Virus record (IMG/VR): IMGVR_UViG_3300020045_002805
Location: 1 to 26,244 of that record
Strand: one strand, 5' to 3'
Source of the DNA: a virus
Lineage: Duplodnaviria > Caudoviricetes
DNA: 26,244 nt
The translations under genes were made by a program, and so were the position numbers. Shown piece by piece: positions 4,911 to 26,221 of this stretch (positions are counted from its first letter, which is position 1; the number at the start of each line of letters is the position of its first letter). The notes below the pieces were generated by a model. The model did no database searches. It saw nothing but the letters and a program-made list of their open reading frames with translations, and was not told the DNA's origin.

Positions 4911-4918
4911 CAAAGATA
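4911..4918 (-). promoter_or_regulatory. Bacteroidota -7 promoter element (TATCTTTG) for the terS operon
   Basis: Matches TAnnTTTG, ~25 nt upstream of the terS ATG. Confidence 0.75.
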
Positions 4919-4943
4919 TAAACTATTTCCGAATGTGGGCCGC

Positions 4944-5360
4944 GTAAACACAAATATTTTTAGGTTGCACTTTTTAACTTGCACGGCGTCAAGCAGTTAC
5001 GGCTAAAACGTAAACACGATTTTATTTGTGTTTACGTTCGTGTTTACCTGTTAAGCCTTATTGTCAAAGGGCTAAGGGCTAAAAGTAAACACAGAAACAC
5101 AGAAACAGACGCGGCAACATATTATACGTGCGTATTACGTAAATATACGTTTTATATGTATTATTATTCTTATATATTTAATATATTTATAATTTACCTA
5201 TATATTGTGTTTCTGTGTTTACTTTTAGCCCTCCGCCCTTACGGGCTATGGTGTTGAAACGTAAACACGTTGTGTTTATTTCTGTTTATTTGTGTTTACT
5301 TTTTCAATTTGGTACATTTCTATGCCTCAAAACGTAAACACGGGTTTTATTTGTGTTTAC
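4944..5360. repeat. Iteron-like array (element A): 10 copies of GTAAACAC/GTGTTTAC with a 27-bp perfect inverted repeat around an AT-rich core; candidate replication origin or packaging site
   Basis: Octamers start at 4944, 5010, 5028, 5040, 5085, 5215, 5261, 5292, 5334 and 5353. The IR AGGGCTAAAAGTAAACACAGAAACACA lies at 5075-5101 and its complement at 5206-5232. Confidence 0.85.
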
Positions 5361-5403
5361 GTTTTTACCGGTTAATTTTATAATTTTAGTCGTCAGGAGG
5401 CAT

Positions 5404-5430
5404 AAAAAAAACCGACTCTTTGAGCCGGTT
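5404..5430 (-). terminator. Rho-independent terminator ending the accessory operon
   Basis: Minus strand AACCGGCTC-AAA-GAGTCGGTT followed by a T-run. Confidence 0.8.
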
Positions 5431-5453
5431 CGGATTATTCGCGTTTGTGAAAT

Positions 5454-6228: not shown

Positions 6229-6873
6229 TTAAGAATTTAAAAATGTGTAGTACGCGCGATAACCTTCATACGCGGCGCGTATCTGATTGAATTCGTCGGT
6301 ACCGCGTCGCGTCGAGTATTCCTCTTCTGAGGCGAAAAAGGCGTCCCATGTGTCTATAGTTTTCCACTTGCAGCCTATCTGAATGCCTTCGCCTAAGACA
6401 GTTACAGGCCATTTACAATAGATAGGCATGTTTGCCAATTTAGCATTTACGGCGCCGCTAAGGCTGGCGCCTCTAAGGTCGGCGCCGCTAAGGCTGGCGC
6501 CTCTAAGGTCGGCGCTGCTAAGGTCGGCGCCTCTAAGGTTGGCGCCTCTAAGGTCGGCGCCTCTAAGGTTGGCGCCTCTAAGGTCGGCGCCTCTAAGGTT
6601 GGCGCTGCTAAGGTCGGCGCTGCTAAGGTCGGCGCCTCTAAGGTTGGCGCCTCTAAGGTCGGCGCCTCTAAGGTTGGCGCTGCTAAGGTCGGCGCTGCTA
6701 AGGTCGGCGCCTCTAAGGTTGGCGCTGCTAAGGTCGGCGCTGCTAAGGTCGGCGCCTCTAAGGATCGCATGTTTAAGTGTTTCTTTAATTGTGTTGCCTT
6801 CGCATTCGTATTCGAAGATTACGCGGCCTAGCCACGTTTTAATCTGGATCTTAATTTTTGTTGGGCTTTCCAT
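6229..6873 (-). CDS. Pentapeptide repeat protein
   Basis: 21 tandem A(D/N/S)Lxx repeats flanked by the N-terminal domain and the C-terminal IQIGC-containing domain common in phage pentapeptide proteins. Confidence 0.92.
6448..6762. repeat. 15-bp tandem repeat, 21 units, encoding the pentapeptide repeats
   Basis: Near-identical units GGCGCCTCTAAGGT(C/T) and GGCGCTGCTAAGGT(C/T). Confidence 0.95.
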
Positions 6874-13317: not shown

Positions 13318-15288
13318 TTAGTCTTTTTTATAGTAATTAGTTGAAAAGCCCTCAGCGGGTAGTGGTAGGCCTTTGGCCCAGGGGACGGGCTTCGCTAGAA
13401 TATCACAAAGCTGCGAGAGAACAAAGTCGACGCTTAGGTTCTCCACCTCTGCTATAACCTCATCATGAACATGCCCGACGATTGGAAAGCCCGCTTTGTC
13501 GGCTCTTCGCATTCCAAGGGCTAAGATGTCACGGGCTATGGCCTGTATGATGTTCTCCGAAATCTTGCCGCCGTAAGTGTCAACCCAACTCCACTTCTTA
13601 GTATCAGGATTGACCCCCATATACTTAATACTTGGGTTGTCCCATCGGTTCGTCGTGAGCATCGCGTCTCGATATATCAGTTTGCGCCCCGATGGTAGTT
13701 GAACCGTTAAACATTTATGTTCGAAGTTGAATATTAATCCTTTGTTCGAGGCCTGCGGCTGTTTGGTTTTAATCGCTCGAATCGCGGCGCGCTCAAAGTC
13801 GTACCACATCTTCACGATGTTTGGACTCTCCGCCCGCCAAACCTTTATAATTTCTTTTATTTGGGCGTCGGTCTCGGCTATGTCGTCGCCGGCCATTTGT
13901 CGGTACGCTCCAACGGATCCACCGAAGCCGAGCGCAAGCTCTGCGATCTTGCCCTTATCACGATACGCCGAGCCCTTGGTCACTTGTTCGATTGGCACCT
14001 TGAAAATCTTAGAGGCTGAGATCTCGTAAATGTTCCCTTTCCCTGCGAAAACCTCTTCGCGCCACTTCTCGGAAGCAAGCCACGCAGTTATGCGCCCCTC
14101 GATTGCGGAGTAATCGGCGATTACAAACGTGTGCCCCTCTTCGGCTATCAGCGTTGTGCGTATGAGCTCAGAAAGAACTTTAGAAATATTGCTAAACATC
14201 ATAACTAGGCCGTCGTAGTCGTTGGCTTTCACCATGTCACGTGCGAGATTTAGGAGTTTCATTTTGTTGCGGGGTAAATTCTGCAGCTGCACCGCGCGAC
14301 CCGCCCAACGGCCTGTACGCCCTGCGCCGTAGAACTGTAAAAGCCCGTGCGCCCGGTCGGTGCTTACTGCATAGTTTGCCATAGCAGTAAACTTTTTCGT
14401 TGAGGTTTTAGACCCTAATTGTCGAAGTTTCAAGACCTCCACCGCCGCCCCTGCCCGATGCTTTTTTATTAAGGACTCAACGGTCTTTTTTGCGAGTGAT
14501 GTAATAGGTTGTCGCAATTCGTCTGTTAGCCATTTTTTAAGCTGGGCGGGGCTGTTCGGATTTACGAGTCCAGTTTTGTCTTTTAGCTGTTCGATTATTT
14601 CGGCTTTGAAAAGGTCGTCAATTATAACAGCGTTGGCGGCCATGAGCGTATCAACCTTAATGCCTTTATCGTTTATTTTCTGATCTAAAATGTAGTTTTC
14701 TTTTTCTACTTCGGGAAACTCGAAGCATTCGTTTTCGTCTTGTACGGCCATTTCGGCCACGACATCCTGGCCGCAATAGTACTTGTAACGTTCCCACTTT
14801 GCGGGGTTGTGTTTCGGTAGATTTCTACATCGGAAGTCGTTCGACTTTACCGGCTTAACTGGGCAAGAAAAGTAACGGATAAGCGCCGAGCCTTCGGCAC
14901 TCTTCGCCTGTTCGCCCAAGTCTAGGACAGTTGATAAGACAGCCAAGGCCATAGGCAGGCCGCAATATGAAGCCTTAACGGCGGAGCAGTGCCAGTGCCA
15001 CGCGGGTATATCGTGACCGATAGCGCGAAACGCTAAGCGTTCAAACATTGCGTTGTGCGCATGCTTTTCGACTAATGGATCGTGTAATGCTTTTAGAAAT
15101 TTTTCGGGTATTTTTTCGCCTTGGAGTAAATCGACTATTTTAATTAAGCCTTTCACGCCGTTAATCTTGAAACAATAGGCCAGTATAACTATTTCAAAGT
15201 CGGGGCTTTCCATGTACTTATAAGCCCCGCATGTCTTAATATTGACGCTTGAAAAAGTTTCAACGTCTATGTGTAATTCAATTGCCAT
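13318..15288 (-). CDS. polA: Phage family A DNA polymerase with 3'-5' exonuclease
   Basis: Exo motifs HIDVET, AHNAMFE and YCGQD; polymerase motifs ADYSAIEGR, KIAELALGFGG and HVHDEV. Start taken at ATG 15288 (MAIELH). Confidence 0.95.
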   Translation of the reverse strand: MAIELHIDVETFSSVNIKTCGAYKYMESPDFEIVILAYCFKINGVKGLIKIVDLLQGEKIPEKFLKALHDPLVEKHAHNAMFERLAFRAIGHDIPAWHWHCSAVKASYCGLPMALAVLSTVLDLGEQAKSAEGSALIRYFSCPVKPVKSNDFRCRNLPKHNPAKWERYKYYCGQDVVAEMAVQDENECFEFPEVEKENYILDQKINDKGIKVDTLMAANAVIIDDLFKAEIIEQLKDKTGLVNPNSPAQLKKWLTDELRQPITSLAKKTVESLIKKHRAGAAVEVLKLRQLGSKTSTKKFTAMANYAVSTDRAHGLLQFYGAGRTGRWAGRAVQLQNLPRNKMKLLNLARDMVKANDYDGLVMMFSNISKVLSELIRTTLIAEEGHTFVIADYSAIEGRITAWLASEKWREEVFAGKGNIYEISASKIFKVPIEQVTKGSAYRDKGKIAELALGFGGSVGAYRQMAGDDIAETDAQIKEIIKVWRAESPNIVKMWYDFERAAIRAIKTKQPQASNKGLIFNFEHKCLTVQLPSGRKLIYRDAMLTTNRWDNPSIKYMGVNPDTKKWSWVDTYGGKISENIIQAIARDILALGMRRADKAGFPIVGHVHDEVIAEVENLSVDFVLSQLCDILAKPVPWAKGLPLPAEGFSTNYYKKD

Positions 15289-15315: not shown

Positions 15316-15376
15316 CACGTCGTCAGGGATTCGAACCCCGCTACGATTAAGTAACTGACCATTACAGTTACGACGT
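15316..15376 (-). ncRNA. Mini tRNA-like element (61 nt) lacking an anticodon arm
   Basis: Acceptor ACGTCGT/ACGACGT, D-like arm AACTG-TAATGGT-CAGTT, a 12-nt linker, T-arm CGGGG-TTCGAAT-CCCTG, and 3' GCAA. Confidence 0.7.
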
Positions 15377-15395
15377 TTCAGACATATAATTAACT

Positions 15396-15510
15396 CGCGT
15401 ATATCGGGCGATAGTTTCGGGGCTAAATCCTAACTAGCGTTTAGCCGTATGCTAGGCGCGCTTATTATACTGCTTGGCTTGCAGTCTGTGAGCATCATCG
15501 CCACAACGCG
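15396..15510 (-). ncRNA. Candidate multi-stem structured RNA between the two tRNA-like elements
   Basis: Nested stems CGCGT/ACGCG, GGCGAT/ATCGCC, ATGCT/AGCAT, ACTGC/GCAGT and GGCTAAA/TTTAGCC. Confidence 0.5.
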
Positions 15511-15544
15511 GTATGTTACTCGAATGAAAGGGAACTTTCCCCTA

Positions 15545-15658
15545 GAGGGCGTGCGGGATTCGAACCCGCAAGAGAACGCTTTCTAGTGCCGTCGCGCTTT
15601 ACTTGCTATTTTATCCGCGCAACTTGTACGCTACGTTTACCAATTTCGCCAACGCCCT
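15545..15658 (-). ncRNA. tRNA-like element (114 nt) with an expanded, non-canonical anticodon region
   Basis: Acceptor AGGGCGT/ACGCCCT, Leu-like D region TGGCGAAATTGGTAAACG, T-arm GCGGG-TTCGAAT-CCCGC, and ~62 nt in place of the anticodon/variable arms. Confidence 0.7.
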
Positions 15659-15727
15659 GCCTTAATTGCCTCCTAATTGCGAGTTATATCGCTAGTGCCT
15701 ATCTTGGGCTTTCGGAGGTCTTTGCTT

Positions 15728-16309
15728 TTAAAGATCGTCGTAATCTTCCTCTTCGTCTTCGAACTCGTAATCGTCGCCGAAGTCCTCTACTACATTGCTG
15801 CTGCTGCCGCCTAAACGTGGGCCGTTTGCAATTTTTTGAATGCTTTCAAGTCCTGCGGTAATTCCTTTGGATTCGTCAGTCCAGTAGTAGTAAAAGTTCA
15901 AGCATACGCGGGCGTAACACCCGCTATACAAGTCCTCAGGGTCGGTAATTGCTTCGAGGTTTCTGTCCACAACGGGAGGGCGTCGGTTAGAACTTACGTT
16001 CATGTAAAATTTTCCTTCATATTCCTCTTCGTCCTTGTCCTCGCCCCCGTCGTTTAGCGTGTTTTTGATTGCTTTTTTAGGCGGTTTGCCGGCGTACTTC
16101 TCAGCGATCATCTTGGTCTCAACTGACTTAATAGCGGCTCGAATTTTCGCTACAGTTTCCTTATCTTTTTTGTCGATAAGAAGTAGACATTTGTATTTTC
16201 CCGGCTCTCCCGGCTTTTTCGGATCGATGTAAGGCGCGAACACGTTCACATAGCTTAGCATCACTTTTCCAGTTGTTACCCTTGTCGGGCTTTTCTCTTT
16301 AGTTGCCAT
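15728..16309 (-). CDS. Phage ssDNA-binding protein (DUF2815 / T7 gp2.5-like)
   Basis: LSYVNVF.P, YSGCYARV, GITAGLESIQK and an acidic C-terminal tail; located between DUF2800 and PolA. Confidence 0.88.
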   Translation of the reverse strand: MATKEKSPTRVTTGKVMLSYVNVFAPYIDPKKPGEPGKYKCLLLIDKKDKETVAKIRAAIKSVETKMIAEKYAGKPPKKAIKNTLNDGGEDKDEEEYEGKFYMNVSSNRRPPVVDRNLEAITDPEDLYSGCYARVCLNFYYYWTDESKGITAGLESIQKIANGPRLGGSSSNVVEDFGDDYEFEDEEEDYDDL

Positions 16310-18873: not shown

Positions 18874-19133
18874 TGTTTACGTGTTAATGCGTTGTATATT
18901 AATAAGTTAAGCGTTAAAAGTAAACAGAAACACAATAAACACGTTTTTCCCTATAGTATATACGGGTATTATGCGTTTTTACGTTTTTTATATACTATTA
19001 TTCTTATATATTTACTATCCTTATAATTCTGTGTATATTTATGTTTACTTTGTTTATTTACCCGTCAGGCTTTTACGGCGTTGCCTTGGTACGTCGTACA
19101 CGTTTTTAAAATTCGTGTTTATTTGTGTTTACT
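18874..19133. repeat. Element B: diverged collinear copy of element A
   Basis: Shares AAAAGTAAACA, TATTATTCTTATATATTTA and TGTTTATTTGTGTTTACT with 5041-5300 at nearly identical spacing. Confidence 0.8.
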
Positions 19134-19150
19134 GCGGAAAATTCGAGGCA

Positions 19151-25771: not shown

Positions 25772-26221
25772 TCACGTCTGCCGCTTTTTTCGCCGCTCCG
25801 AATAATTGCTTAACTGGTTTGGCGTCTTCGATCTCTTCGATCTCTTCGATCTCTTCGATCTCTTCGATCTCTTCGATCTCTTCGATCTCTTCGATTCCGC
25901 CAAAATGGCCTCGATCTTATCCTCTTGGATGTAATCGAACGCGCCCGGCGAAGCTTTCGCAACCGCTAAGGCTAGTTCTAATTTATCTTTGATTTGGGCC
26001 TCGGTGTCTTTTGGGTGGATTGGGTACAATACGCCAGTTTCCCCGGATTCTTTTTTGAAGTTTACCGCGCCTCGGCGAAGCAAAAATAATTCTGTTTTTT
26101 TCATAGTCAAAAATGATTTATAAATTGCGTCCAGATCCGTAGGTCTCCCGCAACAAGGTTTTTGATTTTCGATAAACCGCCGCGCATCTGGCGGCAGTCT
26201 ATTAAATTCTTCGGCGGTCAT
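25772..26221 (-). CDS. Hypothetical protein, C-terminus probably frameshifted (alternative end 25731)
   Basis: ATG 3 nt after an upstream stop. The annotated frame gives (SKR)7, while the -1 frame gives (IEE)n-DAKPVKQLFGAAKKAADVKAAKAKKTDEDLV*. Confidence 0.7.
   Translation of the reverse strand: MTAEEFNRLPPDARRFIENQKPCCGRPTDLDAIYKSFLTMKKTELFLLRRGAVNFKKESGETGVLYPIHPKDTEAQIKDKLELALAVAKASPGAFDYIQEDKIEAILAESKRSKRSKRSKRSKRSKRSKRSKTPNQLSNYSERRKKRQT
25825..25895. repeat. Perfect 9-bp tandem repeat (TCTTCGATC) x ~7.9
   Basis: Read directly from the sequence. Confidence 0.95.

Follow-up and report, generated by a model that had tools for sequence, protein, structure and literature searches.

The gap between two replication genes of a phage contains an RNA cassette that, on comparative evidence, is real and conserved, in which two tRNA mimics without a normal anticodon arm, T1 and T2, enclose a middle RNA, M. 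Judged from its alignments, M represents a covarying structured RNA class that is absent from Rfam and undescribed. We suggest that the mimics probably act as marks for RNase P and for 3' trimming, which would free M early in infection to act in trans, possibly as a decoy that binds a protein. Such a processing logic would constitute a new phage variant of tRNA punctuation.

The window, the whole stretch of 26,244 nucleotides that was analysed, is a phage record rated 58% complete, with transcription on the minus strand, where the cassette and both of its neighbours lie. PHROG profiles identify exonuclease, SSB, PolA, helicase/primase and terminase genes among its 34 ORFs. The upstream neighbour of the cassette encodes a Gp2.5-like ssDNA-binding protein (SSB; 15728..16309, PHROG 112, E 6.6e-54) and the downstream neighbour a family A DNA polymerase (polA; 13318..15288, PHROG 17, E 2e-113). 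The SSB stop (15728) and the polA ATG (15288) are separated by a gap of 439 nt that holds both tRNA-like parts, in agreement with the original prediction, made from the letters of the window, of a structured gap of about 400 nt. A Bacteroidota host is likely, since the nearest cultured relative by PolA is the Croceibacter phage P2559Y (50%). The gap has no blastn match in 50,697 phage records, and a scan of genome contigs returned four matches, all in MAGs with non-Bacteroidota names, which gives no host.

T1 (15545..15658, minus strand; 114 nt) has an acceptor paired at 7 of 7 positions, GG in the D loop and a T stem of 5 bp capped by a canonical T loop. Its anticodon arm is replaced by a 7-bp hairpin with a 19-nt loop (15623-15591) together with a variable-arm-like hairpin (15584-15573), and CCA is not encoded. 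T2 (15316..15376, minus strand; 61 nt) likewise pairs all seven acceptor positions and carries a 5-bp D stem with a GG loop as well as a T arm with one G-U in its stem, while the anticodon remnant consists only of a 3-4-bp stem with a 6-nt loop. The element ends 28 nt before the polA ATG, with the trailer G-CAA. A 5-bp anticodon stem with a 7-nt loop bearing U33 is absent from both T1 and T2, and the T-arm 11-mer pattern occurs at just these two places in the window. The features first noticed by inspection, namely paired 7-bp acceptors, GG-containing D loops and canonical T arms in both parts and a normal anticodon arm in neither, are therefore all borne out.

The mimics of the window escape standard tRNA finders. 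ARAGORN called 0 genes; calls obtained at a lowered threshold were dismissed as noise. Rfam returned no match at E<=1 for the window, and for the gap alone merely T-arm fragments far under the cut-off. The T-arm-plus-acceptor detector described below recovers T1 and T2 and, over the whole window, one further relaxed match (23642-23561). Single-sequence folding beats shuffles only weakly (z of -1.06 for T1, -2.14 for T2, -1.79 for the middle and -2.00 for the three-stem element), so that the real support for the structures is comparative. The three-stem element itself (15668..15720, minus strand), which the original prediction had counted with the cassette, folds at z -2.0, but no homologue is found by blastn in 330 loci and it is absent from the closest relative; it is lineage-specific and at most a putative part of the cassette system.

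Mimics recur in related gaps. The sample comprised 299 sequences (298 loci and the window). SSB as well as the polA start is present in 202 of them; the other 97 were set aside, leaving 155 distinct gaps. The detector takes pairing itself as a criterion and matched 0/715 shuffled gaps in its strict form and 2/715 in its relaxed form. It found 97 elements in 80 of the 155 distinct gaps (75 strict), a fraction that is no prevalence because the search patterns used enriched the locus set for one PolA clade; about ten further mimics that it overlooked are visible by eye. In a PolA tree thinned to 103 tips, mimics are present in 46 of the 51 tips of one Bacteroidota-type clade (support 0.93; six tips scored by eye) and in 1 of 52 outside it. 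Ordinary tRNAs are not what relatives generally carry here: a canonical anticodon arm is seen in just 3 of the 97 elements, and real tRNAs occupy the slot in L106, L183 and L209.

Grouped at 80% identity, the elements form 46 clusters, across which the pair types of the acceptor and T stem vary freely and the stretch between the two can be absent or up to 166 nt long. Of the 43 longer linkers, 41 contain GG. The trailer, which is not a detector criterion, has C74 in 40/46 clusters, A76 in 40/46 and CCA in 0/46; the C-[A/U]-A of T1 lies one base early, its cluster being one of six such among the 46. In four loci (L142, L143, L219 and L243) the mimic is a bare 12-bp hairpin of acceptor plus T stem with a 7-nt T-like loop, and A-CAA follows directly. 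Stretches of 104-166 nt separate acceptor and T arm in L046, L106, L135, L068 and L160, which are natural tRNA-scaffold RNAs. Inserts in three loci are complementary to the region where a small ORF begins, 25-32 nt further downstream (L119, 14/15; L259, 13/15; L090, 12/15) and look like a C4-type antisense RNA or a cis switch. The motif [G/U]CCAU occurs in the inserts of 6/36 clusters, a weak signal with 8 matches against about 3 expected.

Most gut-phage gaps have mimics but no M; adjacent pairs about 6 nt apart are found in these phages (e.g. L233 and L230), and L243 contains three mimics. By eye, L240 and L243 share a second folded stretch, which lies after the second mimic and before the third and seems to be a further cargo RNA with no relation to M. 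A thymidylate synthase-like ORF, also recognized by eye, is inserted after the mimic or tRNA in L184, L209 and L242, and the slot of L209 additionally holds a real tRNA with a CAT anticodon. Some PolAs of the clade are 733-776 aa long or give split alignments (P0024, P0027, P0032, P0043, P0046 and P0047; L047 and L319), which suggests inteins or introns in polA.

M (15377..15544, minus strand) fills the stretch from T1 to T2 and is 168 nt long, not about 115 nt as initially assigned to the middle element. Its 5' motif (15499..15517, minus strand) consists of AAC-RY-AC and a 3-bp hairpin with a GUNNNG loop; it is present in seven loci including the window, across which the hairpin covaries (C-G-C/G-C-G versus C-G-A/U-C-G). 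A pattern for this motif gave 17 matches, of which 3 are real and 14 unrelated. Further along lies a predicted H-type pseudoknot, PK1 (15421..15455, minus strand), comprising a 5-bp P1, an AUAC loop, a 7-bp P2 and a loop ending in AGGA. Changes on both sides are seen in 7/7 pairs of P2, and PK1 parses 14-16 nt upstream of the hairpin H in 15 of 21 loci, being elsewhere or absent in the others. H (15381..15405, minus strand) has a 7-bp stem, 6 bp in the window, and an 11-nt loop with an invariant GUUAA. In an alignment of 21 sequences anchored on GUUAA, four of which came from a pattern containing GUUAA, 98.6% of the cells of H are paired and both-side changes occur in 5/7 pairs; U-G occupies one stem position in 15 of the 21. 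A second small pseudoknot, PK2, lies 3' of H in 17/21 loci and is not found in the window.

For the 3' part of M, aligned in 17 sequences, the second stem of PK1 and H together have 84.5% of their cells paired and both-side changes in 11/14 pairs, whereas slid registers lower the pairing to 21-58%. The covariation score was reached by 0/500 shuffles, which ignore relatedness and concern a structure read from the same sequences. Stem covariation, one of the checks proposed at the outset, is present in the T elements, whose pairing is a detection criterion, as well as in M. The window M is a divergent member of the family, in which the family fold has to compete with the long-range stems of the MFE fold. 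The model R1 matched 25 distinct loci, eight of them outside its 17 training rows; among 100 sources it matched 22, with L153 at 35 bits and P2559Y at 34 bits although neither had been used in training, and a further four loci outside the training set scored 73-85 bits. P2559Y, which carries a mimic at positions 26696-26782 of its record besides its R1 match at 2723-2836 of the locus L043, is also the best blastn match among cultured phages (E 0.04). Of 24 matches to a pattern for H, 12 are full M and 12, at <=21 bits, were treated as chance, as were H matches with E of 0.7 or worse in Flavobacterium LMO phages and elsewhere.

Rfam 15, run on relatives in 27 source searches, some of them repeated, yielded tRNA or T-arm fragments only and never M, for which it has no family. 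Its self-cleaving ribozymes and riboswitches gave no covariance-model match in the window or in relatives. What we took by eye to be resemblances to preQ1-I, T-box and fluoride riboswitches, a group I intron and HDV-like ribozymes have no Rfam support.

The closest relative, L001, has a PolA at 98% and an SSB at 78% relative to the window, and the two polA genes show 113 nucleotide differences over 1968 positions. L001 retains the middle as well as both acceptor/T-arm frames, with a different T1 interior. The T2 interior is identical at 21/29 positions, compared with 153/168-170 for M. In addition, the D stem of T2 shows a compensatory change from G-C to C-G, and two pairs of PK1 P1 are swapped between the two sequences; M as a whole combines its 153 identical positions with compensatory changes.

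The position of M relative to the mimics is largely regular. An upstream T arm is present in 21/25 M loci, with its acceptor end 105-159 nt before H, a downstream T arm in 17/25 and both in 15/25; where the downstream T arm is missing (eight M loci), a terminator-like hairpin takes its place in five. T1 is missing beside M in L309, L153, L315 and P2559Y (L043), and in L309 and P2559Y there is a T arm on neither side of M within the range scanned. The M of L315 lies in G001, a 52-kb genome rated 100% complete that has no homologue of this PolA. There, M follows a promoter-like octamer, TAnnTTTG, with no T1, and a mimic comes after it; the operon that M heads consists of small genes and exonuclease-like genes and runs divergently from terminase. 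We take TAnnTTTG to be the Bacteroidota-type promoter octamer; its occurrence is not enriched over chance. No such octamer is found on the minus strand of the window from 18801 to 7995, so that the window M is without its own promoter of that type. By this comparison, a promoter-like site in G001 occupies the place that T1 takes in the operon-internal copies. A second strict detector match in G001 (L324, 11607-11650, minus strand), which has a 13-nt linker and lies inside an ORF, is probably due to chance.

In the processing scheme that we favour, host tRNA-maturation enzymes would cut the early replication transcript at T1 and T2. RNase P would cleave 5' of 15658 and of 15376, and 3' cutting or trimming would create the 5' end of M near 15545 and free the polA mRNA near 15316. 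The SSB mRNA, T1, M, T2 and the polA mRNA would emerge as separate RNAs, of which the small T RNAs would probably receive CCA. The identity of the 3' enzyme is uncertain, given that Bacillus RNase Z is reportedly impeded by a C immediately 3' of the discriminator. What the mimics retain, the acceptor and the T arm, is the part of a tRNA that RNase P recognises. The bare minihelices of L142, L143, L219 and L243 have the build of minimal RNase P model substrates, hairpins with nothing but an acceptor stem, a T stem and a T loop, whose cleavage by RNase P is described in PMC11143913. [quoted passage not shown]

Excision of the middle RNA by the mimics, as envisaged in the original prediction, is the best supported of the proposed roles, with near-constant spacing and minihelix-only variants in its favour, while the cutting itself we infer. 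The absence of T1 where M has its own promoter-like site fits excision as well, although 4/25 M loci are without T1. Maturation of the 5' end of the polA mRNA, also suggested earlier, may come as a side effect, yet M is present in a complete phage that lacks such a PolA. Excision is not the sole role, since there are mimics without M and some adjacent pairs have nothing to excise. Rather, the M-less gut-phage gaps, the adjacent pairs and the start-complementary inserts suggest that the mimics probably act as RNAs in their own right too.

A stronger form of this last point makes the mimics the main products, stable tRNA-shaped RNAs with antisense or aptamer cargo, or sponges for toxins whose target is the elbow or the acceptor end of tRNA, with M as a passenger. 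The adjacent pairs of L233 and L230, the three mimics of L243, inserts of up to 166 nt, the complementarity to downstream ORF starts in L119, L259 and L090 and the fast change of the T interiors relative to M all point this way. Yet the bare minihelices have no cargo, the window cassette has no antisense match of >11 nt within the 58%-complete window, and the fixed spacing to M is left unexplained; nor can T1 and T2, for which the original prediction also raised a decoy role, be decoys for anticodon nucleases, since they have no anticodon loop. We consider it unlikely that the mimics are the main products, a reading that is in any case compatible with excision. The retention of the slot in nearly all tips of one PolA clade could instead reflect action in cis on the SSB-polA message, where a cut would uncouple abundant SSB from scarce polA mRNA and M would be the polA leader. 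Many mimics do lie close to a neighbouring gene, ending 15-30 nt ahead of the polA ATG or beginning 6-20 nt past the SSB stop, and a terminator-like hairpin is present in 14/75 mimic-free gaps; such a hairpin is, however, also seen in 15/80 mimic-bearing gaps, and in the L136 group it lies between M and polA. Since M and a mimic occur in G001, rated complete and without a homologue of this PolA, M is not bound to polA and is not its leader, which makes the cis reading distinctly improbable.

Least probable by far is that the slot simply tolerates decaying tRNA genes and that any structure lying between them is due to chance. Real tRNAs in the slot (L106, L183 and L209) and the modest folding z-scores speak for decay, but the acceptor, T arm, GG and trailer are kept and only the anticodon arm is lost across 46 unrelated clusters, compensatory changes are visible even between the window and L001, and M covaries. 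On these comparisons, decay is largely refuted.

If M is excised as we propose, it may bind a host protein via H and PK1 and thereby serve in counter-defence or in taking over the host, a function that we put forward tentatively and hold to be possible without being probable. A protein-binding decoy is favoured because of the invariant loops on covarying stems, the fixed spacing, the early-operon position and the lack of an antisense target in the window. A more specific and rather unlikely version holds that the GUUAA hairpin would be a free-standing decoy resembling the tRNA-Asn anticodon loop, which would jam a tRNA-cutting immune nuclease of Bacteroidota, with M excised via mimics that have themselves no anticodon. 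If true, the cassette would be an RNA counter-defence gene with built-in processing signals, by which phages take the tRNA apart. The H loop in L132 and L152 reads, as we take it, like the anticodon loop of tRNA-Asn. GUUAA is invariant (21/21), but the preceding U, like U33, is found only in these two loci, the usual loop having A in its place, and the loop has 11 nt, not 7. A loop decoy is conceivable, since Cas13b6 cuts isolated anticodon stem-loops after U, as stated in the accessible part of PMC13692257.

Several known RNAs share individual features with the cassette. YrlA and tmRNA likewise have an acceptor and T arm without an anticodon arm. T1 and T2, however, have G3-C70 and not the G3-U70 of tmRNA, show no tag frame, receive no ARAGORN call and score with their T arms only; the YrlA model (RF02553) has no match in the window and reaches 25.4 bits against 69 in L153 only. 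PHROGs reveal no Ro60 gene among the 34 ORFs of the window, a 58%-complete record. At 61 nt, mascRNA has the size of T2, and the mascRNA-menRNA model (RF01684) aligns with the T arm only (15.6 bits against a cut-off of 42.5). In mascRNA and menRNA, from MALAT1 and MEN-beta, and in plant mitochondrial t-elements, RNase P and RNase Z cut tRNA-like folds (accessible part of PMC4919922). These are also non-decoding tRNA-like folds at which cutting defines the end of a neighbouring RNA, as it would here, but they are eukaryotic and mark one end, whereas the phage mimics lie on both sides and have hypervariable interiors.

Among phage RNAs, RNAC and RNAD of T4 have tRNA-like ends. They are small RNAs from the tRNA region (PMC3014915, in the part accessible) and differ in phage lineage and locus, being likened here by description and not by sequence. 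Host RNase P processes the phage C4 antisense RNA (P1/P7) and M3 RNA, as PMC11143913 reports. They resemble the proposed scheme in that a longer transcript is trimmed by host RNase P to give a regulatory RNA of the phage, with the difference that there the regulatory RNA itself is the substrate, whereas here separate tRNA-derived marks would flank M. Rfam shows no C4 match, and no antisense target of the cassette is present in the window. The pseudo-ToxI of phage PhiTE reportedly serves as RNA mimicry in counter-defence. The type III antitoxin ToxI is a small H-type pseudoknot (PMC8860590, accessible part). An H-type core is shared by the predicted PK1 of the window, and PK2, present in 17/21 relatives, is of similar size; the window, however, is without PK2, and PK1 is larger with other loops. 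No other mark of a type III antitoxin is seen, be it tandem repeats, a toxin gene or a ToxI, CptI or AbiF match in Rfam, and the cassette is a single copy between SSB and polA.

The literature searched, full text with few subscription papers, yielded no report of a phage with paired anticodon-less mimics releasing a structured RNA. Neither element is described in the accessible text and supplements of Fremin 2023 (PMC10690425), whose alignments may hold either unnamed. Its candidate DNAVirus_1115, upstream of PolA, is probably not of this family, as it is assigned to Verrucomicrobia and Proteobacteria hosts; it is set apart by host and not by sequence. The accessible parts of the Minerva preprint and of the T4 review (PMC3014915) mention no such element or cassette. 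tRNA-like punctuation is already known from mitochondria and MALAT1, and the mimic family adds a natural series, from the bare minihelix to a 166-nt insert, of what RNase P may tolerate. M is also found in an unrelated phage at the head of an early operon, the usual seat of host-takeover and anti-defence functions, and P2559Y, with a mimic and an M-model match in a cultured phage-host pair, makes the proposals directly testable.

Elsewhere in the window, an AT-rich non-coding stretch (4914-5453) contains a 35-nt inverted repeat (5067-5101 / 5206-5240, 94%) and is rich in GTAAACAC-type repeats. A block at 18900-19140 resembles it (78% over 76 nt), and the two are possibly origins or protein-binding arrays before promoters. 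A 214-aa ORF (6229-6873) with several matches to PHROGs of unknown function bears a long array of 15-nt (5-residue) repeats, and a 9-nt tandem repeat at 25816-25904, within a 149-aa ORF, encodes an acidic tripeptide run.
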